Shown: in pieces, positions 3,039 to 37,684 of the stretch
Layout of the letters: every line of letters starts with the position of its first letter
Numbering within the stretch: the first letter of the stretch is position 1
DNA from: Escherichia coli
GTDB taxonomy: Bacteria > Pseudomonadota > Gammaproteobacteria > Enterobacterales > Enterobacteriaceae
Assembly (NCBI RefSeq): GCF_030013595.1
Contig: NZ_CP122768.1
DNA: 64,000 nucleotides
Reading direction: 5' to 3' (one strand)
Made by a program: the position numbers and the translations under genes
The notes under the pieces: model-generated
Told to the model about the DNA's origin: nothing
What the model saw: the letters and a program-made list of their open reading frames with translations, nothing else
The model's database searches: none

Positions 3039-4671
3039 CCTACTGATAGCGATGATAATCTTTGCGCTAATCTGGCCTGCAACCGCGCTCAGAGCGGCAG
3101 TGAGCAAAACAACCTGGGCGGATGCTCCGGCACGCGAGTTTGTGTTTGTCGAAAACAACTCAGACGACAACTTTTTCGTCACGCCTGGCGGGGCGCTGGA
3201 TCCGCGCCTGACCGGTGCCAACCGCTGGACCGGTTTAAAATACACTGGCTCAGGAACCATCTATCAGCAAAGCCTCGGCTACATTGATAACGGTTACAAC
3301 ACCGGCCTTTATACCAACTGGAAGTTTGATATGTGGCTGGAAAATTCACCAGTTTCATCTCCTTTAACTGGCTTGCGCTGCATCAACTGGTACGCAGGGT
3401 GTAATATGACCACCAGTCTTATCCTGCCGCAAACCACCGACGCCAGTGGATTTTATGGCGCGACGGTGACCAGCGGCGGCGCGAAGTGGATGCACGGCAT
3501 GTTGTCAGACGCGTTTTACCAGTATCTGCAACAAATGCCCGTCGGCAGCAGCTTTACAATGACCATCAATGCCTGCCAGACCTCTGTGAACTATGACGCC
3601 AGTAGCGGCGCACGCTGTAAGGATCAGGCCTCCGGCAACTGGTATGTTCGCAACGTCACCCATACGAAAGCAGCAAATCTGCGGTTGATAAATACCCACT
3701 CGCTGGCGGAAGTATTTATCAACAGCGACGGAGTACCGACTCTGGGCGAAGGGAACGCCGACTGCCGGACGCAAACCATCGGCAGCCGTTCAGGATTAAG
3801 TTGTAAGATGGTTAACTATACCCTGCAAACAAACGGACTCAGCAACACCTCAATCCATATCTTCCCGGCGATCGCCAACTCGTCGTTAGCCTCGGCCGTC
3901 GGGGCGTACGATATGCAGTTCAGTCTGAATGGCAGTTCATGGAAACCGGTGAGCAATACTGCCTATTACTACACCTTCAACGAGATGAAGAGCGCAGACT
4001 CGATCTATGTTTTCTTCTCGAGCAACTTCTTTAAGCAGATGGTGAACCTCGGGATCAGCGATATCAACACCAAAGATCTATTCAACTTTCGCTTTCAGAA
4101 CACCACATCACCGGAGTCTGGCTGGTATGAATTTTCTACCTCCAACACGCTGATTATCAAACCCCGTGATTTCAGCATCAGTATTATCTCCGATGAATAT
4201 ACTCAGACACCGTCGCGGGAGGGATATGTTGGCAGCGGCGAGTCGGCACTCGATTTCGGCTATATCGTAACCACCAGCGGTAAAACAGCTGCCGACGAAG
4301 TGCTGATCAAGGTGACCGGACCCGCGCAGGTGATTGGCGGGCGCTCCTATTGTGTCTTCAGCTCCGATGACGGTAAGGCGAAAGTACCGTTCCCGGCGAC
4401 ACTTTCCTTTATTACCCGCAACGGAGCTACAAAAACCTACGATGCCGGGTGCGATGATAGCTGGCGGGATATGACCGATGCGCTGTGGTTGACCACACCG
4501 TGGACTGATATCTCTGGCGAAGTGGGGCAGATGGATAAGACCACAGTCAAATTTTCGATTCCAATGGATAACGCCATTTCGCTGCGTACGGTAGATGATA
4601 ACGGCTGGTTTGGCGAAGTCAGCGCTTCAGGAGAAATTCATGTTCAGGCGACGTGGCGTAACATTAACTAA
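3028..4671 (+). CDS. ecpD: EcpD (MatE) fimbrial tip adhesin, 547 aa
   Basis: 547 aa ORF with signal peptide, overlaps ecpC stop by 11 nt; length and context match EcpD. Confidence 0.9.
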
Positions 4672-5350
4672 GGCCCTGCTGACAGCGGTCTGTATGCTGG
4701 CGGCACCTTTGACACAGGCGATTTCGGTCGGCAATCTGACATTTTCGCTGCCGTCCGAGACTGACTTTGTCAGCAAACGTGTAGTGAATAACAACAAAAG
4801 CGCACGGATATACCGTATTGCCATCAGTGCTATCGATAGCCCGGGCAGCAGTGAATTGCGCACCCGACCGGTGGATGGTGAACTGCTTTTCGCCCCCCGC
4901 CAGCTGGCGTTGCAGGCTGGTGAGAGCGAGTATTTTAAATTTTACTATCATGGTCCACGGGATAACCGCGAGCGCTACTACCGGGTCTCATTTCGCGAGG
5001 TCCCCACTCGCAACCAGACAAGACGCAGCCCAACCGGCGGCGAGGTCAGCACGGAGCCGGTGGTGGTGATGGATACCATTCTGGTAGTACGACCTCGTCA
5101 GGTTCAGTTTAAATGGTCCTTCGACAAGGTGACAGGAACGGTAAGTAACACTGGCAACACGTGGTTTAAGCTACTGATTAAGCCAGGATGTGATTCGACC
5201 GAAGAGGAAGGCGATGCCTGGTATCTACGTCCGGGAGACGTAGTTCATCAGCCTGAGTTACGTCAGCCGGGGAATCATTATCTGGTCTATAACGACAAAT
5301 TCATTAAGATTAGCGATTCCTGTCCTGCTAAGCCCCCTTCGGCGGACTAA
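4640..5350 (+). CDS. ecpE: EcpE (MatF) fimbrial chaperone, 236 aa
   Basis: ORF 4595-5350; start placed at MFRRRGVT to give 236 aa with signal peptide; paralogous to EcpB. Confidence 0.85.
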
Positions 5351-22799: not shown

Positions 22800-23520
22800 C
22801 AAATGCGCCTGTAAGGCTCTGTTACCAGCCGCGCCCTAACAGGCGCATACGATCTGACATTTGCATTCAACTTCGTTACTTACGGCCCGTAAACGGGCTG
22901 CCCGGATATGGAATCGATAACTGCTCCCCCATTTTATCCTCTTCAAGCTGGTGCTTTATGTAGTCCTGTATCTTCGCCGTGTTCTTACCCACCGTATCGA
23001 CATAGTACCCTCGGCACCAGAACTCCCTGTTTCTGTATTTGAATTTCAAATCCCCAAACTGCTCGTAAAGCATCAGACTGCTTTTCCCTTTCAGATATCC
23101 CATAAAGCCGGATACGCTCATTTTGGGTGGGATTTCCACAAGCATATGGATATGATCTGCGCAGCACTCTGCTTCCAGAATCCGTACGCTTTTCCACTCA
23201 CACAGCTTTCTCAAAATACTGCCTATCGCCCTACGCTTCTCTCCGTAAAACGCCAGTCTTCGGTATTTCGGCGCAAAAACTATGTGATATTTACAGTTCC
23301 AGCGGGTGTGCGCTAAGCTCTTTTCGTCCCCCATTGGGACCCCCTTTTGATTTCTTGTTTGACACTTGCAGTTGCCAGACCGCAAGGTGTTTTAACAAAT
23401 CAAAAGGGGTTTTAATAACTGGCTCAAAGCTGAAAGCTTTCCGGAACCCCCAGCCTAGCTGGGGGTTTTCTGTGCACAAAAAGCCGCGTCTCCCGGAGAA
23501 GACGCGGCCTGATGGGTGAA
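22800..23520 (-). mobile_element. IS200-like insertion sequence (boundaries approximate)
   Basis: Contains IS200/IS605 Y1 transposase gene; upstream on the minus strand a perfect hairpin gccgcgtcttctccgggagacgcggc followed by a T-run and a second hairpin cccccagctaggctggggg, the characteristic IS200 left-end structures. Confidence 0.75.
22876..23334 (-). CDS. tnpA: IS200/IS605-family Y1 (HUH) transposase TnpA
   Basis: 152 aa from MGDEKSLAHTRWNCKYHIVFAPKYRR with HUH motif ADHIHMLVEIP and catalytic Tyr region; ORF track start 23385 is an extension. Confidence 0.85.
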   Translation of the reverse strand: MGDEKSLAHTRWNCKYHIVFAPKYRRLAFYGEKRRAIGSILRKLCEWKSVRILEAECCADHIHMLVEIPPKMSVSGFMGYLKGKSSLMLYEQFGDLKFKYRNREFWCRGYYVDTVGKNTAKIQDYIKHQLEEDKMGEQLSIPYPGSPFTGRK

Positions 23521-23834: not shown

Positions 23835-26681
23835 TCAGAAAGTCACATTCAGCGTGGCCTGACCGTTATAACCTTCAGCGCTGCTGCCGCTGACGCTGTG
23901 GGCATAACCGGCCTGAACGCCCAGGGTGATATTTTCCCGGACACGGGCTTCCAGTCCGGCCTGCAGGTCCAGTGACGTGCCATTCTGGGATGGTGAGAAC
24001 GTCATGTTACTGCCGGCTGCGGCTGTACCCATGCTCATGTCACCCCGGGAGCTGAAGGTGCGGATAACAGAAGGCTGTACCCACCAGTTCACCGGCAGTT
24101 CACGCACACTGTGTTTTGCACTGTCGCGCAGGGTGTCACGGGATGAGGTGCCTTCACCAAAGGTCATATCGTTGTGGCTGCCCAGACGGAAACCGGCACG
24201 CACATGTTGTGCACTGCCATGCCCGAACTTCACATAACCGGCGTTATCCTGGCCGTCATCCAGGGAAAGTCCCTGCCAGGTATACTGCAGTTGTGGCTCC
24301 AGCATCAGGTTGTCAGTGATACTGAAGGGCAGACCGGTTTCCAGTGAGCCCAGCCAGCCCCAGCCCCGGGCGCGGAAGTCGTTATTGTCCGATGACGCTT
24401 TCATGCTGTGGCGGGTTCCCTGTGCCACAATGTCAGCCCACAGGCCGGAGGACGTGTGTGTCAGATTCAGGTATCCGCCCAGGCTGCCGGCATCATCCCG
24501 GACCGTGCCGGCACGGGAGCCGTCATCATCCTTAACATCAACGGAAGAATGGCCTGCAGCGCCATATACCCCCGTGGTCACAGACATACCGGCAACCTCT
24601 GTTCTCAGCAGGTCACCCTCCAGACGGACGAAGCCATAGCTGCCGCTGCTTTCCGGCGTGGCCCCACGGGCAATACCGCCGTTGTTATCGTGACCGAGAT
24701 GACCGCCCTGAATGCTGAGACGGACGCTGTTATTTTCACCGTTTACACCGGTCTGATGGCTGCGGGAGCCTGCCAGAATCCGGTCATAGTCCATTGCCTG
24801 TGTCAGCATGGAGGCATACAGGGGGACTTCAGCACGATAAGCATTTTCACTGCGCAGGTACCAGTCTTCATCGCTGTCACGGTTCAGGGTGTAGTTAAAG
24901 ACACCGGCCTGAAGCGGGCGACTCAGGGCAAACGCACCTTCTTCTGTGGTGGCACCATTCTGTGCATCCACAACCCGGATACCCTGTCCGGAGGTTGCCA
25001 CCCCGAGGTTACTGTTTCCGACATTTGTGAACGCAAGCCAGGTTTTGCCGGTTGCCTGACCACCATTAATCACCAGCTGGTCAGGGGCATTGCTGCCATC
25101 AAGGCGAACACGCATATTGATGGTGCCACCCTGACCGGTGAGGTTACTGGTGGTCAGTTTATGGAACGTTACCGGGGCGTCGCCTTTTGCAACAGCACGG
25201 CTCAGGACGGCATCCTGTGTCGTCTGATTATCAAAGCGAATCTCCCCTGCGTTAACAATATCGCCGGTACTGACCACATCACCATTCAGTACCATGCTGG
25301 CGCCTTTACTGAGCTGTGTTCTGCCACTCAGACTTCCCCCGGCAGCCAGCATCAGTGTCCCACGATGTCCGACAGTGGTGTTGCTGGCCTGTCCCCCGGC
25401 ATTAACCGTAAAGCTACCGCCATTTTCCAGCAGCAGGCCGCTGGCCTGACCGGATATACCATCAATACTGAACTTACCGCTGGCATTGGTCCCCTCAACA
25501 GTGGCACCACTGTCTGCAATCAGGGCACCACCGGATGTCATGGTGACACCTGTTGCCTTACCACCGGCAGACACTGCCAGGGTACCGCCGTCATCCACCC
25601 GTGTTTTCTGCGCTGAATGGCCCTCCAGTACATCCAGGCGACCGCCGGACTCCAGAACAAGGCCGTCAGCCTTACCGTTTTCCACCGTGAAATTGCCCAG
25701 ACGGTTGCTGCCGGTGACGGTTGCCGCCGTACTGGTGACCAGTGCGCCCCCCTGCTTCAGGGTGACATTCGTGGCTGTACCACCGGCGTTCACCTGCAGC
25801 TTGCCTTTCTGGTTAACGGTGGTGAAATCCGCCAGACCACCTTCCTTGATAATCTGCCAGCCGTCACTGTTTACAACAGTGCCAGACGCCGTACCGCCGT
25901 TGTGCACATACTGGTACCCCCCATTCAGCGTGGTATCCAGTGCGTGACCATGTACAGTCTGGTCGCCGCCGGCATAAACCACAGTGGTATTTACCGTTCC
26001 TTCAGCAGCCACAATCTGACGACCATTTTTATTGATGGTGGTGCGTACGGCATCTCCGTAGACGGTCTGCCCGGTATCACCATTTTCTGCATCCGGTCCC
26101 CCTTCCGCGCCGGTATTCACAACCGTGTCGGTTGCCACTGCGCCGGATTTGACGGCCTGCCAGCCCTTCTCATTAATGACAGTACCCGTTGCAATCCCGC
26201 CTTCATGTACCCACTGCTCACCGCCGTTCAGAGTGGTGTTCACTGCCTGCCCCTGAAGGCTCTGTCCGCCTCCGGCACTGATAACCGTGTCTGAAACGCT
26301 TCCTCCGGCATTCACTCTCTGAAGACCACCACCGGTGACAGTAGTGTTGTTGGCGATACCGCCATTTTGTATCCATTGTCCGCCGGTATTGGCCTCGTTA
26401 TCCGGCCCATACTCCAGACCGGTACTGATGGTCATTCCGTTGGCCGTACCGAAGACAATCTGGTTGTCATGATTTTCCAGTGTTCCGCCGCTCACGGTTT
26501 CTCCCGTCTGTACAACCGTGTCAGCAGCCAGTGCCGGGACTGATGTGACAGCAGCAAGAGACAGCGCAACCGCCACACCGGCGCGTTTTCCCCGTGAGCG
26601 GGCCAGTTCGGAGGTCACCACCAGGGTGCCCGTAATGTGATTCCATACCAGCCTGTAGCTGGTGTTCAGATGTCGTTTCAT
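23835..26681 (-). CDS. flu: Antigen 43 (Flu) self-associating autotransporter adhesin
   Basis: Extended autotransporter signal peptide [45 protein letters not shown]; repetitive beta-helix passenger; beta-barrel ending in aromatic F; 948 aa from this start (ORF track start 26756). Confidence 0.9.
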
Positions 26682-26894
26682 CAGCTTTTCCTTACAGAGG
26701 GTGAATAAAAAAGCCGGTACCCACAAATATGGGTACCGGCAGGTACAAAACAGCATGGTCAGATAAAGTGGTTTTTCCCGGACATAAATGCTTCTCCTCT
26801 CTCATCCGCCAGAGAAGTATCAGTCCGTTGTGTGCAATTCCGTTCTGCATGATGAAGAGATTCAGCTGCCTTTTCGCAGACCATTAACCACTAT

Positions 26895-26938
26895 AAACGA
26901 TCGATGGTAACGATCGATACATGTTTTATCGATCGTTT
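26895..26938 (-). promoter_or_regulatory. agn43 leader with three clustered GATC sites (Dam/OxyR phase-variation switch)
   Basis: GATC at 26899, 26912 and 26931 within about 35 bp, roughly 220-250 bp upstream of the Ag43 start codon. Confidence 0.65.
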
Positions 26939-27052: not shown

Positions 27053-27922
27053 TCAGAAGAAAATCCAGTTCCATACAGCGCGGGCAACAGAGACCACCGT
27101 GTCACGGACGACACGCAGAACCGTACGAGCCACAGAGGCAATACAGACGCTCTCCGCCGTGTCAAATATCCGGTCCACCGCACCGGTAAACTGTTCACGG
27201 GCCTGCCCCCGGACAGATTCCGTGCACAACTCGTCCTGCAGGCGGGTCATCAGGGGACTGGCGGCATGGTCGGGAAGTGCTGTCATGAGCGCACTGACCA
27301 GCGTATCCAGTTCCCAGCCGGTGCGGGCCGATACGGCCACAACCGGATGTACGGGCCGGAACAGCCGGAATACCGCATCTGTTTTCTCACGAATGTTCTG
27401 TTCCTGTGCGGGAGAAGGCTGAATACCTGCCATATCCCATTCATGGCAGGGCTCCGTTTTGTCGGCCTGCGTCACCACAAACAGCACCTGCTGATGTCCC
27501 CGGTGCAGGATGTGTCGCCAGAAATACTCATCCACAGACAGGGCACGGTCATCGGCTTTAATCAGCCACAGTACCAGGTCAAGTTCAGGCAGAATGTCAC
27601 GGTACAGGGCTTCATACTCTGCATCCCTGTCCCGGCTCTCGCCCACCCCGGGTAGGTCAGTGATAACCATGCTGTGACCATGGCCACTCAGACGGAAGCG
27701 CTGCGCTTCCCGGGTGCCGGCGTGAACATCACTGACCGGGGTGACCTCCCCCTGAAACAGTGCATTACAGAGTGAGGATTTACCGGCCCCGCTTTTCCCC
27801 ATAATGCCAATCACGGGTTCGTGGCTGGTGAGTTTGCGCAGATGTTCCAGGATGTGACGGGAAAGTGAGTAAGGAAGAGAAGAAAGTGGTTTTTCAATTG
27901 CCTCAATGGCATCAGACGGATT
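27053..27922 (-). CDS. YfjP/YkfA/YeeP-family GTPase
   Basis: Walker A GIMGKSGAGKSS, G3 DLPG, G4 TQADK; start set at MNPSDAIEAIEK; ORF track start 27964. Confidence 0.85.
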   Translation of the reverse strand, partial: NPSDAIEAIEKPLSSLPYSLSRHILEHLRKLTSHEPVIGIMGKSGAGKSSLCNALFQGEVTPVSDVHAGTREAQRFRLSGHGHSMVITDLPGVGESRDRDAEYEALYRDILPELDLVLWLIKADDRALSVDEYFWRHILHRGHQQVLFVVTQADKTEPCHEWDMAGIQPSPAQEQNIREKTDAVFRLFRPVHPVVAVSARTGWELDTLVSALMTALPDHAASPLMTRLQDELCTESVRGQAREQFTGAVDRIFDTAESVCIASVARTVLRVVRDTVVSVARAVWNWIFF

Positions 27923-28255
27923 CATACATGTATTCCCGGTGAAAAAAGACAAAACCCCGCGCACCGGAAAGGTGGCGGGGGATTCACGGAGATAATATCT
28001 GTCTGAAATTATTTAGGATGCAGGTATCTTCAGATAATCGCACCCCCAGAATTTTATTCTTAATAGTTGAATAGTGGTATTTGGTTTCCCTGAGAGAATA
28101 TAAAGATGAATCATGCTGTATTGAGTTTGATTCTATTTGTACTGAGACAGGTATCTTCATGATTATAATCAAAAGCCGGGTGGATTGGTCTGGCGCTAAT
28201 TATTTTCTCGAATAAACTCACTAATTATTGTAACCATCCCAAAGGAGATGATTTT

Positions 28256-30400
28256 ATGTATAATTGTGGTGAATCATATTCAGAATACGACATATCATTA
28301 TCTGACGATGAAAACTATAACGATGACTATTATCGTGAGCGCCCGTGCCCGGGAGAAGTTTTCGGCTATGATAATGATGTACCACGGTTTAGTAAGATTG
28401 CACGGTCTTATTTGCTCCACGTGGGTAGCCTTGACTGGACCAAGATAAATCCGGATATCTTTGGCTCCATGATTCAGGCAATTGCCGAAGATGAAGAGCG
28501 CGGAGAGCTGGGTATGCATTACACCAGCGTACCCAACATCTTAAAAGTTTTGAATCCACTATTTCTTGACGACCTGCGTGCACAGCTGGACGAGGCTGGT
28601 GACAATCCACGTATGTTGCTGAACCTGCGCAAACGCATTTCCCACATTCGTGTGTTCGACCCAGCGTGCGGTTCTGGGAACTTTTTGGTTATCGCGTATA
28701 AGGAAATGCGTGCCATTGAGGCCGAAATCAACAAGAGGCGCAGTGAGCCGGATCGTGCCTCGGATATTCCACTTACCAACTTTCGCGGGATTGAACTACG
28801 AGATTTCCCGGCAGAAATCGCCCGCCTTGCGCTTGTTATCGCTGAGTACCAATGTGATGTGCTGTACCGTGGGCTGCGGCTGGCCTTGGCTGAGCTTCTT
28901 CCTTTACGCAACGAAAATTGGATTACTTGTGGCAATGCACTGCGGCTCGACTGGTTAAGAATTTGTCCGCCAACGGGAACCAGTGTGAAATTACATGGTG
29001 ACGACTTGTTTGGATCACCGCTTGATCAGGCAGAGATTGACTTTGAAAATGAAGGAGGAGAGACATATATTTGTGGAAATCCTCCATACAAGGGTAGCCA
29101 AACCCAAACTGATGACCAAAAAAATGATCTAAAAGCCATATTCGAGAAACGCACAACTAATTGGAAGTCATTGGATTATGTTGCAGGTTGGTTTATGAAG
29201 GCTGTCGACTACGGTAGTCAAACTAACTCGTCTGCTGCGTTCGTCTCAACTAATTCCATTTGTCAAGGTAGACAGGTCGAAACCCTTTGGTCGTTGATTT
29301 TTGCAGCCAAGCATGAAATATCCTTTGCTTATACGTCCTTCAAATGGGCAAATCTTGCTAGCCACAATGCGGGAGTGAGTGTCATTGTTGTGGGAATTTC
29401 TAATCATGTTAAGGGCCCCCGGAAAATATTTTCCACAACTGAGGATTTGGGGACCATCATAAAAGAAGTAGACAACATCAATGCGTATCTTGTCGCGGGT
29501 AAAAGCACAATTGTTGCACAGCGAAGTTTTCCTTTATCCGAAGTAAGTGTAATGGATTTTGGTTCAATGGCGAACGATGGTGGTGGCCTTCTTTTTGACA
29601 GTTCAGAATCAAGTCGTGCAGTTAATGATTATGGTGCTGATATTTGTTATTTTCGAAAGGCTTGGGGAGCTAAGGAGTTTATTTCTGGAACTCCTAGAGC
29701 TTGCCTGTGGTTAAATAAAGACAGTGCTAAAAAAGCAATTCTGAACTCTTGGATTTCAGACCGAATTGAGATCACACGTAAGGCCAGAGCAAATAGTCCT
29801 CGGGCAGCGACAAAAAAACTAGCAGATATTGCTTACAGATTTGGTGAAGTGAGGCAAGACGGCAGCGAGCGAATCATTATTGTTCCCAGTGTCAGTTCTG
29901 AACGTAGGGAGTATCTTCCATGTGGTTATCTCGATGTTGGTTCAATCGTTATCGCTCCGAATCTTGCTTTCTATGATTCCCCGCTTTGGAATATGGCGCT
30001 TATTGCTTCTAGGTTGCATTTGGTATGGGTGGCGACAGTCTGCGGGCGTATCAAAACTGACTATCGCTACTCTAATACCCTTGGCTGGAATACTTTCCCT
30101 GTCCCACCACTCACTGAGAAAAACAAGGCCGACCTTACGCGTTGCGCAGAGGATATCCTACTGGCGCGGGAACACCACTTCCCTGCGACTATTGCGGATT
30201 TGTATGATCCCGCGAACATGCCCCCTGACCTGCGTGCTGCCCATGAACGAAACGACGAAGTGCTGGAACGCATCTATATAGGGCGACGATTCAAGAACGA
30301 CACTGAGCGGCTGGAAAAGTTGTTCGACCTCTACACGAAAATGATTGCTTCGACTGCACCGGTCAAAGGTAAGAAGCGCAAAGCAGGAAATAACGAATGA
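28256..30400 (+). CDS. N6-adenine DNA methyltransferase, gamma-class, MmeI/PglX-like, without nuclease domain
   Basis: 714 aa; strong SD aaaggaga 8 nt before ATG; SAM motif I VFDPACGSGNFLV at about aa 135 and catalytic motif IV CGNPPYKG at about aa 277; upstream HYTS helical region; about 430 aa C-terminal presumed target-recognition region. Confidence 0.8.
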   Translation: MYNCGESYSEYDISLSDDENYNDDYYRERPCPGEVFGYDNDVPRFSKIARSYLLHVGSLDWTKINPDIFGSMIQAIAEDEERGELGMHYTSVPNILKVLNPLFLDDLRAQLDEAGDNPRMLLNLRKRISHIRVFDPACGSGNFLVIAYKEMRAIEAEINKRRSEPDRASDIPLTNFRGIELRDFPAEIARLALVIAEYQCDVLYRGLRLALAELLPLRNENWITCGNALRLDWLRICPPTGTSVKLHGDDLFGSPLDQAEIDFENEGGETYICGNPPYKGSQTQTDDQKNDLKAIFEKRTTNWKSLDYVAGWFMKAVDYGSQTNSSAAFVSTNSICQGRQVETLWSLIFAAKHEISFAYTSFKWANLASHNAGVSVIVVGISNHVKGPRKIFSTTEDLGTIIKEVDNINAYLVAGKSTIVAQRSFPLSEVSVMDFGSMANDGGGLLFDSSESSRAVNDYGADICYFRKAWGAKEFISGTPRACLWLNKDSAKKAILNSWISDRIEITRKARANSPRAATKKLADIAYRFGEVRQDGSERIIIVPSVSSERREYLPCGYLDVGSIVIAPNLAFYDSPLWNMALIASRLHLVWVATVCGRIKTDYRYSNTLGWNTFPVPPLTEKNKADLTRCAEDILLAREHHFPATIADLYDPANMPPDLRAAHERNDEVLERIYIGRRFKNDTERLEKLFDLYTKMIASTAPVKGKKRKAGNNE

Positions 30401-32442
30401 ACAATAAAATCAAGAATGTACCTTCCGTTTCCGTTACTTATGCACGTAATGGCGCATCAACCAAAGCTAATGTGCTTGGGATGCGTCCTATGCAGGAGAG
30501 AGCTTATGAAAAGCGCGGCGAGCAGTACTTGCTTATCAAATCACCACCGGCATCAGGTAAAAGCCGCGCACTGATGTTCATAGCACTCGACAAACTCGAA
30601 AACCAAGGGATTAAACAGGCAATCATCGTTGTGCCGGAAAAATCTATCGGCGCGAGTTTCAACGATGAACCGCTATCGCAGTTTGGATTCTGGGCTGATT
30701 GGCATGTCGAACCTAAGTGGAACCTATGCAACGCGCCCGGTAACGACAACGGGGGCAAGGTAAGATCTTTTGGCTCTTTTCTTGAAAGTAGCGACAAGGT
30801 GCTTGTTTGCACACACGCAACCTTTCGCTTCGCGGTCGATGCCTATGGCGTAGAAGCGTTTGACGATCGCCTGATCGCCGTCGATGAATTCCACCATGTG
30901 TCAGCTAACCCGGATAACAAGCTTGGTCAGCATCTGGGGCAGTTCATCGCGCGTGATAAGACACACATCGTTGCCATGACCGGCTCCTACTTCCGTGGTG
31001 ATGCGGAGGCCGTTTTGGCTCCTCAGGATGAGTCCAGGTTCGATACCGTCACCTATACCTACTACGAACAACTCAACGGTTACGAATACCTCAAGCAACT
31101 CGATATCGGCTACTTCTTTTACAGTGGCTCCTACGTCGATGACATCCTTAATGTCCTCGATCCTGACAAAAAGACCATTATCCATATACCCAACGTCAAT
31201 TCGCGCGAGAGCACGAAGGATAAAATCAAGGAAGTGGAGCATATTCTTAGCGAGCTTGGCGATTGGCAAGGTGCGGATCCTGCGACTGGTTTCCAGCTAG
31301 TCAAATGCCTCGATGGCCGAATGTTGCGTATAGCTGATCTGGTGGACCCAACTAGTCAAGGCAAGATTCAGGAAAGCCTTCGTGCTGCAGAAATGAAGAC
31401 AGACCGTGACTATGTAGACATCATTATTGCACTTGGTATGGCGAAGGAAGGTTTTGACTGGATTTGGTGCGAACATGCGCTGACCGTTGGCTACCGTGCC
31501 AGCCTGACTGAGATCGTGCAGATTATCGGTCGCGCTACTCGCGACGCGCCGGGTAAAAACCGCGCAAGGTTTACTAACCTGATCGCCGAGCCGGATGCTG
31601 TTGAGGGGGCTGTCACCGAGGCAGTCAACGATACCTTGAAAGCCATCGCGGCAAGCCTGCTGATGGAGCAAGTATTAGCTCCGCGCTTCGAGTTCAAGCC
31701 TAAGAACCCAGAAAGTGGTCCGGCCCCAGGCTTTGATTATGGTGATGGTGGATATGACCCGGATAGCTGTAATTTTGGTGTTAATGAGCAGACAGGGACG
31801 TATCAAATCGAGATTAAGGGACTTGCCGAGCCCAGGAGCAAAGAGGCGGCACGCATCTGCCAGGAAGATTTAAACGAAGTGATCGCGGCCTTTGTGCAGG
31901 ATAAGCCCGCCATCGAACGAGGCCTGTTCGATGAAGAGCTGATTCCTGAAGAGTTAACTCAGGTTCGTATGGGTAAGATCATCAAAGAAAAGTATCCTGA
32001 GCTTGATGCTGAAGATCAGGAGGCTGTACGTCAGCATGCTATCGCCGCCCTTAACCTCACGCAGCAGGCCAAGCGTCTTGCCACCGACGATAACGATGGG
32101 ACGCTCAATACTGCTCTTATTGACGGAGTGCGTCGCTTTGCGATGGATGTGCGCGATTTAGACATAGACCTTATCGACCGCATCAATCCCTTTGGTGAAG
32201 CCTACGCTATCCTTGCTAAGACGATGAGTGAAGACAGTTTGAAGCAGGTCGCGGCGGCAATCTCGGCCAAGCGTACCTCGATCACACCTGAAGATGCCAA
32301 GGTGATCGCCAAGCGTGCCGCTGAATTCAAACGTGAACGTGGCCGCCTCCCATCGTTAACTTCGCCGGATGCTTGGGAAAAACACCTTGCTGAAGGTGCA
32401 GCTGCGTTTATGCGTTTTAGGGCGGAGGGACGTTATGAATAA
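30397..32442 (+). CDS. SF2 (DEAD/DEAH, ResIII-like) helicase with about 300 aa uncharacterised C-terminal extension
   Basis: 681 aa; ATGA overlap with MTase stop; Walker A SPPASGKSRA, DExH box IAVDEFHHV, motif III MTGSYF, motif VI QIIGRATRD. Confidence 0.8.
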   Translation: MNNKIKNVPSVSVTYARNGASTKANVLGMRPMQERAYEKRGEQYLLIKSPPASGKSRALMFIALDKLENQGIKQAIIVVPEKSIGASFNDEPLSQFGFWADWHVEPKWNLCNAPGNDNGGKVRSFGSFLESSDKVLVCTHATFRFAVDAYGVEAFDDRLIAVDEFHHVSANPDNKLGQHLGQFIARDKTHIVAMTGSYFRGDAEAVLAPQDESRFDTVTYTYYEQLNGYEYLKQLDIGYFFYSGSYVDDILNVLDPDKKTIIHIPNVNSRESTKDKIKEVEHILSELGDWQGADPATGFQLVKCLDGRMLRIADLVDPTSQGKIQESLRAAEMKTDRDYVDIIIALGMAKEGFDWIWCEHALTVGYRASLTEIVQIIGRATRDAPGKNRARFTNLIAEPDAVEGAVTEAVNDTLKAIAASLLMEQVLAPRFEFKPKNPESGPAPGFDYGDGGYDPDSCNFGVNEQTGTYQIEIKGLAEPRSKEAARICQEDLNEVIAAFVQDKPAIERGLFDEELIPEELTQVRMGKIIKEKYPELDAEDQEAVRQHAIAALNLTQQAKRLATDDNDGTLNTALIDGVRRFAMDVRDLDIDLIDRINPFGEAYAILAKTMSEDSLKQVAAAISAKRTSITPEDAKVIAKRAAEFKRERGRLPSLTSPDAWEKHLAEGAAAFMRFRAEGRYE

Positions 32443-33613
32443 TTCTGATTTAGACGATTTGGCAGCAGAACTTGCCGAGTTTGCACCACCTGAGAAGAAA
32501 AAAGGACGTCCAGCCAGCGAGGAACGCATCATAGCCGGTTTTGAAGAGATCCAGCGCTTTACTGAGCAACATGGGCGTGTCCCGCAACATGGCGAAGAGC
32601 GTGATATCTTCGAGCGTCTCTATGCAGTGCGGCTCGACCGCCTACGCAGTCTCCCAGACTGCCGTGCCTTGCTAGAGCCACTGGATCATCAGGGCTTATT
32701 AGCTGGAGGGGGCGATGTAGCGGAGTCTGCGGACGAAATTATCGATATCGATAACTTGGCTGCCGAACTGGCGGATGTTTCCAGCGAGGACGATATCACG
32801 GTCTTGCGTCATGTTCGTGCTAGCACCGAAAAGCGCGTTGTACAAGGAGTTGCGGATCGCAAGCCGTGCGAGGATTTTGATGCGTTCAAACCACTATTTG
32901 AGCAGGTACGCAATGATCTAAGTTCAGGGTTAAGAGTGACCCGACCTTTTGGGCAGTATGCAACGATTGAAGTGGGTCATTGGTTTATCCTGGATGGTCA
33001 AACGGCTTATGTGTCTGAGGAAGGTGAAGAGTTCGATTCTCCACAGGGGAAGAAAGATGCTCGGCTGCGTGTCATTTATTCGAATGGTACAGAAAGCAAC
33101 CTACTTCGGCTGTCATTGGTTCGTGCTTTGTATAAAGACGAAACAGCGCGTCGAATTACCGATCCAGACATGGGGCCTTTATTCAGCGATGCTCTAGAAG
33201 AGAGCGATCTAGAAAGTGGCACTATTTATGTGTTGCGTTCGCTATCTGATAACCCTTATGTAGCTGAACATCGTGATGTCATTCACAAGATTGGAGTGAC
33301 TGGCGGCAAAGTAGAGGCGCGTATTGCCAATGCGGAACACGATTCCACCTATCTGTTAGCGAAAGTCGAGGTGGTAGCTTCATACAAGCTTGCAGGCATC
33401 AACAGCACCCGGATGGAAAACCTGTTTCACAGGTTGTTTGCACCCGCAAGGCTTAACATTACCATTAACGACCGTTTCGGCCATCCAGTGCAGCCCGAGG
33501 AATGGTTTCTCGTTCCGTTATTCGTTATCGATGAGGCTGTTGCACGTATTAAGGATGGTAGCATCATTGGGTATGTTTATGACCCCATGTCTGCGAAACT
33601 GGTGAAGGCATAG
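32435..33613 (+). CDS. Protein with C-terminal T5orf172 / GIY-YIG-superfamily domain
   Basis: 392 aa; start ATG 32435 overlaps the helicase stop by 8 nt and has GGAGGG SD; C-terminus GTIYVLRS...HKIGVTGGKVEARI...ENLFHRLF...EEWFLVP matches the T5orf172/GIY-YIG pattern; N-terminus has two acidic repeats DLDDLAAELAEF and DIDNLAAELADV. Confidence 0.7.
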   Translation: MNNSDLDDLAAELAEFAPPEKKKGRPASEERIIAGFEEIQRFTEQHGRVPQHGEERDIFERLYAVRLDRLRSLPDCRALLEPLDHQGLLAGGGDVAESADEIIDIDNLAAELADVSSEDDITVLRHVRASTEKRVVQGVADRKPCEDFDAFKPLFEQVRNDLSSGLRVTRPFGQYATIEVGHWFILDGQTAYVSEEGEEFDSPQGKKDARLRVIYSNGTESNLLRLSLVRALYKDETARRITDPDMGPLFSDALEESDLESGTIYVLRSLSDNPYVAEHRDVIHKIGVTGGKVEARIANAEHDSTYLLAKVEVVASYKLAGINSTRMENLFHRLFAPARLNITINDRFGHPVQPEEWFLVPLFVIDEAVARIKDGSIIGYVYDPMSAKLVKA

Positions 33614-34426: not shown

Positions 34427-36191
34427 ATATCACGAACGGTGCAATAGTGGTTCTTCCGCAACTTGGGTGGAAGAAAATGGATGAAACTTTCTGGTGAACA
34501 AGGATCTAAGCTGTTTTAAGTTATGGGCAACGCAATGCACTCTCTTAAGACACTTCTACAGTTACCTTGCGGATGGCGATGCAGTCGACAAATTATTAGC
34601 TCTGACGGTATCACCCTCCATCTCCACGGAAAACGCAAAACAGCACAATGTCCTGAATGCTCTAAGCGTAGCGACTCTGTTCATAGTTCTCGTCGGCGCC
34701 GGATACAGCATCTACCCTGCTCCGGGCAGACGCTATGGCTTGTATTTTCCGTCCGCCACTGGTACTGCCGTAACCCGGCTTGTTCACGTAAAATTTTTGC
34801 CGAGTCGCTTGCTCCCTTCGCCGGTTCACACCAGCAGTCTTCACAGGCGTTACAAAATTTACAACGTCAACTGGGATTAATAGCTGGAGGTGAGGCTGGA
34901 AAACGGGCTGCAACGGCAGCGGGTCTCCGTTGCAGTGCTGATACTCTTCTTCGCAGGGTTATCAATACCCCGGAGACGAAACAGTCAGGCGCGCCTCATG
35001 TCGGTATTGATGAGTGGGCGTGGCATCGGGGCCACTGCTGCGGTATGTTAATAGTCAATCTTGATACTCACCGTCCCCTCGTCCTGCTTCCCGGCCGTGA
35101 TCAGCGTACGCTGGCGACCTGGTTCAGAAAATATCCGGAAATACAGGTTGTCTCGCGTGATCGCAGTGGAGTCTATGCGACAGCAGCACGTGAAGGTGCA
35201 CCTCAGGCCAGACAGGTGGCCGATCGATGGCACCTGCTAAAAAATATTGGTGATGAGCCTGAACGAATGATGTACAGACATATACCTCTGATACGTCTTG
35301 TTGCCAGTGAGTTGTCACCAAAGAAATCACCTGAGCCAGAACTGTCTGTGCCTGCAGCATCGCTCCGTCGTCCGGAACGCCTTAAACAGCAAACCCGCAA
35401 AAAACGGCATCAGCGTTGGACAGAGGTTATGGCCCTGCATAACAAGGGATGTAGTTTCAGGGAAATATCCCGTATTACAGGCCTGTCGCGTGTGACAGTC
35501 AGTCGCTGAGTACGTTCAGGAACATTCCCTGAAATGTCAACCCGACCTCCAAAGCGAGGGCTTTTGGACCCATGGAGGGAGTGGTTAAAAGAGCAACGAG
35601 AAAGTGGGAATTATAACGCCAGCCGGATAATGGCGGGAAATGGTGGTCCGGGGGTTTACAGGCAGTGAAACCATTGTCAGGGATACTGTTGCCAAATGGC
35701 GTAAAGGCTGGATCCCACCGGTTACTACTGCCGTCAGACTTCCTTCAGTGTCCCGGGTAAGGCGCTGGTTGATGCCCTGGAGAATAATCAGGGATGAAGA
35801 AAATTATGCTTCCCGATTTATTAGTCTGATGTGTGAAAAAGAACCGGAGCTGAAAATAGCGCAGCAACTGGTACTCGAGTTCTACCGTATTCTGAAAACC
35901 CAAAATAAATCACAGCTTAGCAGCTGGTTCACTCGAGTCCACGAAAGCGGTTCAGCAGAACTTCGGCGCGTGGCTGCGGGGATGGAAGCTGATGCTGCGG
36001 CTATATGTGAGGCAATCAGCAGTCGCTGGAGTAATGGTGTTGTCGAAGGTCATGTAAATCGCCTGAAGATGTTGAAACGCCAGATGTATGGTCGAGCCGG
36101 ATTTGAACTGCTCAGGCAGAGGGTCATGAGTCCACTGGCATGAAAATCTCCACCCAAGTTGCGGAAGAACCACTTTTCATCCGTCGTTGAC
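34427..36191 (+). mobile_element. ISL3-family insertion sequence nested in IS66 tnpA
   Basis: Perfect 23 bp terminal inverted repeats ggttcttccgcaacttgggtgga (34449-34471) and tccacccaagttgcggaagaacc (36149-36171), extending imperfectly outward; removing 34427-36196 restores the IS66 tnpA frame. Confidence 0.75.
34523..36143 (+). pseudogene. ISL3-family transposase, disrupted by an in-frame stop and a frameshift
   Basis: Two ORFs (34523-35509 and 35640-36143); N-terminal zinc-finger-like HLHGKRKTAQCPECS and C-terminal WSNGVVEGHVNRLKMLKRQMYGRAGFELLRQRV typical of ISL3 transposases; TGA at 35507-35509 followed by a frame change. Confidence 0.75.
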
Positions 36192-36498: not shown

Positions 36499-36840
36499 AT
36501 GATAAATCTTCCCGCAGGCACAAAAATCTGGCTGGTTGCCGGTATCACCGATATGCGCAACGGCTTCAATGGTCTCGCCGCAAAGGTGCAGACAGCGTTG
36601 AAAGATGACCCGATGTCCGGCCACGTCTTCATCTTCCGGGGCCGCAGCGGCAGTCAGGTCAAACTGCTGTGGTCCACCGGCGACGGACTGTGCCTGCTGA
36701 CCAAAAGGCTGGAGCGTGGCCGCTTCGCCTGGCCGTCGACCCGCGATGGCAAAGTGTTCCTGACGCCGGCGCAGCTGGCGATGCTGATGGAAGGTATCGA
36801 CTGGCGACAGCCAAAGCGGTTACTGACGTCCCTGACATGT
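36499..36840 (+). CDS. tnpB: IS66-family TnpB (orf2)
   Basis: MINLPAGTKIWLVAGITDMRNGFNGLAAKVQTALKDDPMSGHVFIFRGRSGSQVKLLW...GIDWRQPKR matches IS66 orf2; ATGA overlap with preceding tnpA frame; 3' end merges into the truncation junction. Confidence 0.7.
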
Positions 36841-37684
36841 TGTAGCCCAGGTCTTCTTCGTTGATAAAGTTCACATCCAGAGGATGGATACTTCCTGTAG
36901 CCCGTAATATCGTCGGTTCAATATCCTGCACATTCATCGGGATCACCGATGCAAGAAAAGCCCATTGATCAGAATAAGGCTGGAAATTAATATCAACAAA
37001 AACGCTTCCCCCCGATGCACGCGGTCTTTTTTGCAGAGGTAACGCGATAAGATTACCAAATCCTCCTTTTGGCATAGTATCCTGATTAGGAAATAATCGG
37101 TCATAAGAACTCAATTGCAGCTGTCGGGTCCGGCTGCACGTATAGCTAATAATAGCAGTCCCCAGACGGCGAGCTTCGCGGGCCGAAACTCGTGAAGCAA
37201 AAAATATCCAGACATGCGCTCCCTGACGTGAGCGGGATATTTCCAGCGCAGCAGGTACACTCAGCTCATCACAGGCTCGCATGAACGCGGATGCATCCTT
37301 CTGCCATTCAGCTTTATCAAAATCAACAGCCAGAAAATAACAGGAATCATCTTCCAGCAACGGATATAACCCGGCAGTATGCGTGCCTGCCAGATGCTGG
37401 TAGATGACAAGATCAGATACAGGGAGTAACTGACGGTGCGTACAGTCCCCGCATTTTATCCGGGGTTTACCGCATATTCTCGCCTGCCATTCGTTAGCGC
37501 AGGCAGGAGAGTACCCTGATTTGCCGCTGGTTTTACTTTCCCAACGAAGGGCCCATATATCATCACGCCCACGAAACAACCGACGAAATAATGCAACCTT
37601 CTCGTCGGTGGATAATACGGAAACGCGCTGCACAGGGCTCGGCGGTTTACGTCGCCATTCCAAGTAATGAGACCAGACGGGCAT
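36841..37684 (-). pseudogene. Archaeo-eukaryotic primase (AEP / Prim-Pol)-like gene, 3'-truncated by the IS66 remnant
   Basis: N-terminal LFRRLFRGRDDIWALRWE, DxD motif FLAVDFDK, GAHVWIFF and GGFGNLIALP motifs; the last third of the listed 341 aa ORF is antisense IS66 tnpB sequence. Confidence 0.6.

Follow-up and report, generated by a model that had tools for sequence, protein, structure and literature searches.

In Escherichia coli K-12, genomic SELEX with the RpoD holoenzyme identified the sequence TTGAAA-15-TATCAT upstream of yfjP and ykfA (Shimada et al. 2014, PMC3946193). The intergenic interval studied here (27926-28255) lies between the start of a GTPase gene of the same family (27925, minus strand) and a plus-strand ORF that starts at 28256, within a 64-kb stretch of E. 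coli DNA that was analysed as a whole and is hereafter called the window. The plus-strand ORF encodes a protein related to the MmeI-family type IIG/IIL enzymes. Short repeats upstream of R-M genes are known from the C-protein operators of R-M systems, the C-boxes, which time the expression of methylase and nuclease, and a short direct repeat around a segment of DNA is also what target-site duplications of IS elements and MITEs look like. The sequence-only reading of the window had drawn attention to a 12-bp direct repeat, CAGGTATCTTCA, in the AT-rich intergenic region, and had taken its two copies for possible promoter or operator elements of the methyltransferase operon. The repeat is indeed an exact 12-mer with two copies on the plus strand (28021-28032 and 28148-28159), and the interval is indeed AT-rich, with 38% GC versus 50% for the window. 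We conclude that the pair is probably a coincidental exact match in an ordinary AT-rich divergent promoter region rather than a paired regulatory element. The features of the locus are listed below.

23344-23467, minus strand: STnc490 RNA (Rfam, 146 bits)
23835-26756, minus strand: Ag43-type autotransporter gene
26700-26936, minus strand: IS102/IsrC RNA (Rfam, 73 bits)
27053-27925, minus strand: YeeP/YfjP/YkfA-type GTPase gene, 290 aa, ATG at 27925 (MMR_HSR1, 3.5e-15)
27942-27981, minus strand: GC-rich hairpin and U-run in the GTPase 5' leader (z = -2.66), with an outer helix over a weak RBS
27992-28018, minus strand: position homologous to the RpoD promoter, with the -10 equivalent TATTAT (27997-27992) and the -35 equivalent TCCTAA (28018-28013)
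28021-28032, plus strand: repeat copy 1, CAGGTATCTTCA, with the variants CAGGTATCTTCT and CAAGTATCTTCA
28142-28169, plus strand: sigma-70-like site, CTGAGA (28142-28147), a 16-nt spacer and TATAAT (28164-28169)
28148-28159, plus strand: repeat copy 2, CAGGTATCTTCA, with the variants CAAGTATCTTCA and CAGGCATCTTCA
28243-28375, plus strand: Shine-Dalgarno sequence AAGGAG (28243-28248) and the first 40 codons (28256-28375) of a 60-aa orphan ORF
28256-30400, plus strand: 714-aa in-frame fusion protein with intact MmeI_Mtase, MmeI_TRD and MmeI_C domains
28372-28375, no strand: deletion junction with TAAT microhomology
30397-32442, plus strand: DEAD/ResIII helicase gene, downstream in the operon
to 33613, plus strand: gene for a T5orf172/MUG113-domain protein, downstream in the operon
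34523-36143: ISL3-family transposase fragments in two ORFs
36659-37684, minus strand: AEP-TOTE primase-domain gene (TOTE conflict system), E = 7e-100, located after the ISL3 fragments

The sequence reported for K-12 was located in the spacer between rnlB and yfjP, and its two hexamers align to positions 28018-28013 and 27997-27992 of the window. We infer the placement of the GTPase promoter in the window from this homology to the K-12 paralogues. The two loci share the homologous position, the conserved leader and the GTPase gene family, and the -10 element is kept (TATTAT here, TATCAT in K-12) and followed by a hairpin and a U-run. However, the -35 element is degenerate in the window (TCCTAA versus TTGAAA), the evidence for the promoter is in vitro binding in the K-12 allele, and the K-12 promoter is without the 12-mer, the sequence upstream of yfjP being divergent there. 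Copy 1 of the repeat begins 3 nt upstream of the -35 equivalent, which places it at roughly -36 to -47 from the putative start site.

The GC-rich hairpin and U-run in the GTPase leader look like an intrinsic terminator. In the leader (27926-28000, minus strand), this terminator-like hairpin lies within an outer helix covering the RBS and the start codon. The K-12 yfjP leader (positions 4625-4716 of locus L032) has the same architecture in a largely different sequence (z = -2.66 in the window and -5.77 in K-12). Because the reported -10 element overlaps with the 5' arm of the outer helix, this helix may form solely in read-through transcripts. No Rfam family matches the GTPase 5' leader, nor did a search of positions 27850-28400 at the gathering and E<=1 thresholds return any family. 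The island GTPase gene family carries a conserved, structured and terminator-like 5' leader that is not described by any RNA family.

The intergenic interval is a mosaic. The part adjacent to the GTPase gene, from 27926 to about 28030, is found in approximately 4,250 of the 5,426 E. coli genomes, with up to seven copies per genome, while the remaining part, from about 28031 to 28375, is found in approximately 840 of them, once each and always in the same context. The module at 28031-28250 is likewise single-copy and always adjoins the GTPase gene (841/5,426 genomes). The first part would represent the conserved leader and promoter module of the YeeP/YfjP-type GTPase gene, and the second part a class-specific module with a small orphan ORF that has its own sigma-70-like promoter and strong Shine-Dalgarno sequence. 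A scan of one genome per species (GTDB representatives), in which copy 2 was masked by N, gave no matches, and the module at about 28031-28375 appears to be confined to E. coli.

Homology between the island classes breaks off at copy 1, in a staggered manner, from about 28012 to 28038. Several other island classes have ATGCAGGTAT in common and diverge beyond it, so that copy 1 is half backbone and half class-specific: its first seven nucleotides (CAGGTAT) belong to the widely shared backbone upstream of the GTPase gene, and its last five (CTTCA) are specific to the island class. Past the divergence point, the other classes carry type I R-M genes, a LysR regulator, a TonB receptor or ParA-linked genes. 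Positions 28012-28038 approximately mark the edge of a variable cargo and defence region, whose contents across the classes also include MmeI-type and ter genes. A second nearby CAGGTAT is absent from all other classes examined except E. coli DDG206, in which CAGGTATCTCA (L008, positions 2640-2660) is located upstream of a type I hsdM gene, at a distance from the GTPase gene that exceeds that of copy 1 by around 60 nt. This looks like an insertion of about 61 nt into the end of the backbone, not an independent motif. On the other side of the GTPase gene, the minus strand carries the backbone of a tRNA-island-type E. coli genomic island, with the GTPase gene, the IS102/IsrC RNA and the Ag43-type autotransporter gene. 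The STnc490 and IS102/IsrC matches flank the Ag43-type gene, an arrangement that resembles CP4-44-like islands.

On the plus strand, the best sigma-70-like site is CTGAGA-16-TATAAT, and copy 2 of the repeat fills its spacer. The site agrees with the consensus at 10 of 12 positions and has a PWM score of 9.7, as compared to a mean of 8.9 and a 95th percentile of 11.7 for the best sites in shuffled sequences. None of the sites from the PWM and consensus promoter scans of both strands beats the best site in shuffled AT-rich sequence. CTGAGA-16-TATAAT is located 87 nt before an ATG that is preceded by a strong AAGGAG Shine-Dalgarno sequence. We consider the site a candidate promoter of the orphan ORF and, in the window, of the fused methyltransferase operon, and promoters on both strands are plausible. 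In E. coli CLSC36 (L027), an IS2 element is inserted into the TATAAT -10-like hexamer just past copy 2, at the equivalent of about position 28167, and cuts the orphan ORF off from its putative promoter. A Fur box, for which GATAAT and TGATTATAATCA had prompted a search, was rejected, since the best match of 13/19 was equalled in 15% of the shuffles.

The orphan ORF is similar to WP_000282126 and is confined to E. coli and a few Klebsiella pneumoniae entries. Its homologs comprise 28 proteins, of which the named ones are all from E. coli and a few from K. pneumoniae fall in the 90% cluster, and many of them are truncated or frameshifted. The protein is acidic, and its relatives are without a precomputed Pfam domain. 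Within the ORF there are imperfect 15-bp tandem units, ACGATGAAAACTAT and ACGATGACTATTAT (window positions 28297-28333), and the allele L013 (2501-2707) has extra copies of these units. The variation in unit copy number, together with the frameshifted and truncated versions, suggests that there is weak or no selection on the orphan protein. A literature search under guessed EDL933 locus tags (Z1212 and others) found nothing relevant.

The relationship between this region and the methyltransferase operon becomes evident from a comparison with E. coli H8, which is identical to the window across the intergenic region. The H8 sequence is 100% identical on both sides of the junction and contains an additional 2,291 bp between positions 28375 and 28376. 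In H8, the same ATG opens the 60-aa orphan ORF, which is followed by IS66 remnants and then by a gene for a 928-aa MmeI-family type IIG enzyme. The 2,291 bp missing from the window comprise the remainder of the orphan ORF, the IS66 remnants, the native upstream region of the enzyme gene and its codons 1-254, and codon 40 of the orphan ORF is joined in frame to codon 255 of the enzyme, of which residues 255-928 are kept. As a third component of the mosaic, the deletion would thus have fused the orphan ORF in frame to the MmeI-family gene, and the promoter and RBS of the orphan ORF would now drive the genes for a nuclease-less methyltransferase, the helicase and the T5orf172-domain protein. The operon has been juxtaposed to the intergenic region only by this strain-specific deletion, and the region is therefore not the native promoter of the methyltransferase operon. 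The earlier placement of the repeat upstream of the methyltransferase is correct for the window but does not hold for the native arrangement. Within the native 250 bp upstream of the full-length gene in H8, the 12-mer is absent, and the best match has three mismatches. The exact 714-aa protein is encoded by 17-19 public E. coli contigs, and the fusion arrangement was found in none of the 5,426 complete E. coli genomes. Examples of assemblies with the fusion are GCA_900448395.1 and GCA_021649105.1.

The 928-aa protein in H8 contains MmeI_N (residues 1-159) and MmeI_hel (170-250) in addition to MmeI_Mtase, MmeI_TRD and MmeI_C. Like other members of the MmeI family of type IIG/IIL enzymes, the fusion protein has the gamma-class N6A MTase, TRD and C-terminal domains at full length (Pfam E = 5.8e-116, 3.1e-73 and 3.9e-18, respectively) and matches the PADLOC REase_MTase_IIG model at 9e-226. 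It differs from them in that the window allele lacks the PD-ExK nuclease (MmeI_N), which was lost because the deletion removes codons 1-254, as well as the helicase-spacer (MmeI_hel), and in that it begins with 40 foreign codons and has a captured promoter and RBS. The helicase and T5orf172 genes (30397-33613) directly follow the MmeI-family gene, and their arrangement, in which stop and start codons overlap, is shared by H8. PADLOC returned no significant match at the level of a system, and the pair may be an accessory module of an R-M or defence locus.

The likeness to C-boxes is limited to the presence of short repeats upstream of an R-M gene. The repeats in the window are direct and non-palindromic, have a spacing of 127 bp and are foreign to the R-M gene, and no C gene is present among the larger flanking ORFs. 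None of these ORFs, which encode the GTPase, the MmeI-family fusion, the DEAD helicase, the T5orf172-domain protein and the ISL3 transposase fragments, is an HTH controller gene, in agreement with what had been said of the locus before, and the public annotation calls only one small ORF, the 60-aa orphan. MmeI-type enzymes are single polypeptides for which no control by a C protein is known. We exclude a C-protein operator on the basis of the lack of a C gene among the larger flanking ORFs, the lack of dyad symmetry and the fact that the region is not native to the R-M gene.

The significance of the repeat depends on the frame of reference. A direct repeat of a 12-mer within the 330-bp region arises in only 0.7% of first-order Markov simulations. 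However, the scan in which the repeat was noticed covered 64 kb, and over the whole window 0.5 direct 12-mer repeats within 150 bp are expected and one is observed, with 38% of the simulated 64-kb windows containing at least one such repeat. The low figure thus applies only inside the 330 bp, and the repeat is near the chance expectation for the window. With up to one mismatch, CAGGTATCTTCA has just the two matches in the 64-kb window, and with up to two mismatches there are seven, as compared to 4.3 expected. The looser matches in the window do not form a family. The similarity between the copies also does not extend into their surroundings. Alignments of the left and right flanks of the two copies are no better than those of shuffled sequences (p=0.55 and 0.66, respectively), and neither are the remainders of the two 127-nt units (p=0.46), which shows that the repeat is an isolated 12-mer. 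No extended or gapped similarity around the copies was above that of the shuffles. The copies had been described as each followed by gat-a/t-at. While GATAAT follows directly after copy 1, copy 2 is followed by a T and then GATTAT, so the tails are out of register.

In an alignment of 16 alleles taken from complete genomes and assemblies, 11 have an exact copy 1 and the other five have one that ends in TCT, while copy 2 is exact in seven, begins with CAAG in eight and with CAGGC in one. Both copies are exact in seven of the 16 alleles. The O157:H7-type alleles, which form the largest group in the genome collection (621 genomes in the 90-95% identity band), have the TCT ending in copy 1 and the CAAG beginning in copy 2, and their copies match at 10 of 12 positions. 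A scan of metagenomes with copy 2 masked by N retrieved 40 contigs. Because the search pattern dictated the sequence flanking copy 2 in this sample, the local comparison is biased. Of the 40 contigs, 25 have both copies exact, and among these 25 the spacing is 127 bp in 15, 118 bp in nine and 128 bp in one. An indel of 9-10 bp at about 28078-28087, present in ZJ3920 and nine metagenome contigs, changes the spacing from 127 to 118 bp. One haplotype combines the CAAG beginning in copy 1 with the CAGGC beginning in copy 2. Only the CAGGCATCTTCA variant of copy 2, seen in strain 504239 and two of the 40 metagenome contigs, breaks the 8-nt core GTATCTTC, which all the other observed copies retain. 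Across 28 unique haplotypes from complete genomes and metagenomes, 87 of 333 sites (26%) are variable, and two of the 12 sites are variable in each copy, while 40% of the 12-nt windows vary as little or less. Since no available allele falls below ~88% identity, the test for constraint has low power. The copies thus show neither excess constraint nor concerted change, and their spacing is not fixed. The sequence-only reading had named a lack of conservation in homologous loci among the things that would speak against it, and by that standard the computational half of its refutation is largely achieved, the copies being no better conserved than their surroundings.

The geometry of the locus could in principle accommodate an operator pair. 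A DNA-binding protein from the island or the host would attach to both 12-mers and regulate the divergent promoters of the GTPase gene and the orphan ORF together, perhaps through a loop of the intervening 127 bp. In this arrangement, copy 1 would be located just upstream of the GTPase -35 element and copy 2 inside the spacer of the plus-strand promoter. Promoter-like elements adjoin both copies, the distance of 127 bp corresponds to approximately 12 helical turns, hardly any copy has lost the core GTATCTTC, and an exact 12-mer repeat is improbable locally (0.7% in the 330-bp region). Yet the copies are no better conserved than the background, do not change in concert and are spaced at 118, 127 or 128 bp, and the 12-mer has no dyad symmetry, with only two of its 12 positions being self-complementary. 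There are just the two copies: further matches across the 64 kb do not exceed chance, and the operon's native promoter has none. Relative to the two promoters, the copies are equivalent in neither position nor orientation. Of the 12-mer, the other classes that share this GTPase backbone retain just CAGGTAT, and a second copy is missing from them. We therefore consider an operator pair to be quite unlikely. That a bridging protein on both 12-mers couples the repression of the GTPase-Ag43 backbone promoter to that of the cargo promoter is very unlikely; if it were true, the cargo promoter in the window strain would control a nuclease-less MmeI-type methyltransferase. Another way to give the repeat a function is as a duplicated promoter core, in which the -10-like TATCTT in each copy (28025-28030 and 28152-28157), together with the -35-like hexamers CTGAAA (28003-28008) and TTGATT (28127-28132), would form two tandem rightward promoters, or in which the -10 elements would be the GATAAT and TATAAT that follow the copies. 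Both TATCTT hexamers are among the top six plus-strand candidates, with scores of 6.3 and 6.9, and TATCTT is intact in all alleles of copy 1 and nearly all of copy 2. However, these scores are below the mean of 8.9 for the best sites in shuffled sequences, those -10 candidates that follow the repeat do not line up, being offset by 1 to 5 nt, no relationship exists between the flanks, -35 regions included, and the CAGGCATCTTCA variant (504239 and 2/40 metagenome contigs) destroys the TATCTT of copy 2. A duplicated core is thus unlikely.

The repeat could also be the trace of a past rearrangement, either as a target-site duplication around an inserted element of 115 bp or as the remnant of a 127-bp tandem duplication. 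Target duplications of the IS4/IS186 type are compatible with a length of 12 bp, as is the direct orientation of the copies. Unlike in the IS and MITE cases, however, terminal inverted repeats are absent from the 115-bp interior, each genome that carries the interior has it only once and in this context only, and no empty-site allele was found: an artificial query matched 837 genomes versus 840 with the interior, and all the top empty-site matches consisted of two pieces spanning 361 bp. As for the tandem duplication, the remainders of the 127-nt units are no more alike than shuffled sequences (p=0.46). Both forms of this explanation are already largely refuted and are extremely improbable. 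The coincidence of copy 1 with the edge of the cargo region instead brings to mind a recombination signal, with copy 1 as a specific site of cargo exchange beside the conserved GTPase backbone, and the homology between the classes does end within approximately 25 bp of copy 1. However, the breakpoints are staggered between 28012 and 28038 instead of falling at one position, several classes still share sequence with one another past copy 1, there is no recombinase-type core or inverted-repeat structure, and copy 2 is found inside one class only, which makes such a signal highly improbable. Against these alternatives, a chance match of the two 12-mers remains the probable explanation, and the repeat most likely has no function as a pair, as we infer from the comparisons above.

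The suggestion that the copies are promoter or operator elements is thus borne out to the extent that they lie in a divergent promoter region, as indicated by the homology to the K-12 RpoD site and by CTGAGA-16-TATAAT, and fails with regard to a repeated, paired element of the operon, given the independent changes, variable spacing and non-equivalent positions of the copies and the lack of dyad symmetry. Even as a real regulatory element, the repeat would merely add another operator to an island promoter and would matter little. What had been taken for the promoter of a methyltransferase operon is instead a promoter and RBS captured from an orphan ORF. The locus represents a natural promoter-capture deletion that turned an MmeI-type R-M enzyme into a nuclease-less methyltransferase, and the 714-aa fusion may represent a natural change from R-M enzyme to orphan methylase.
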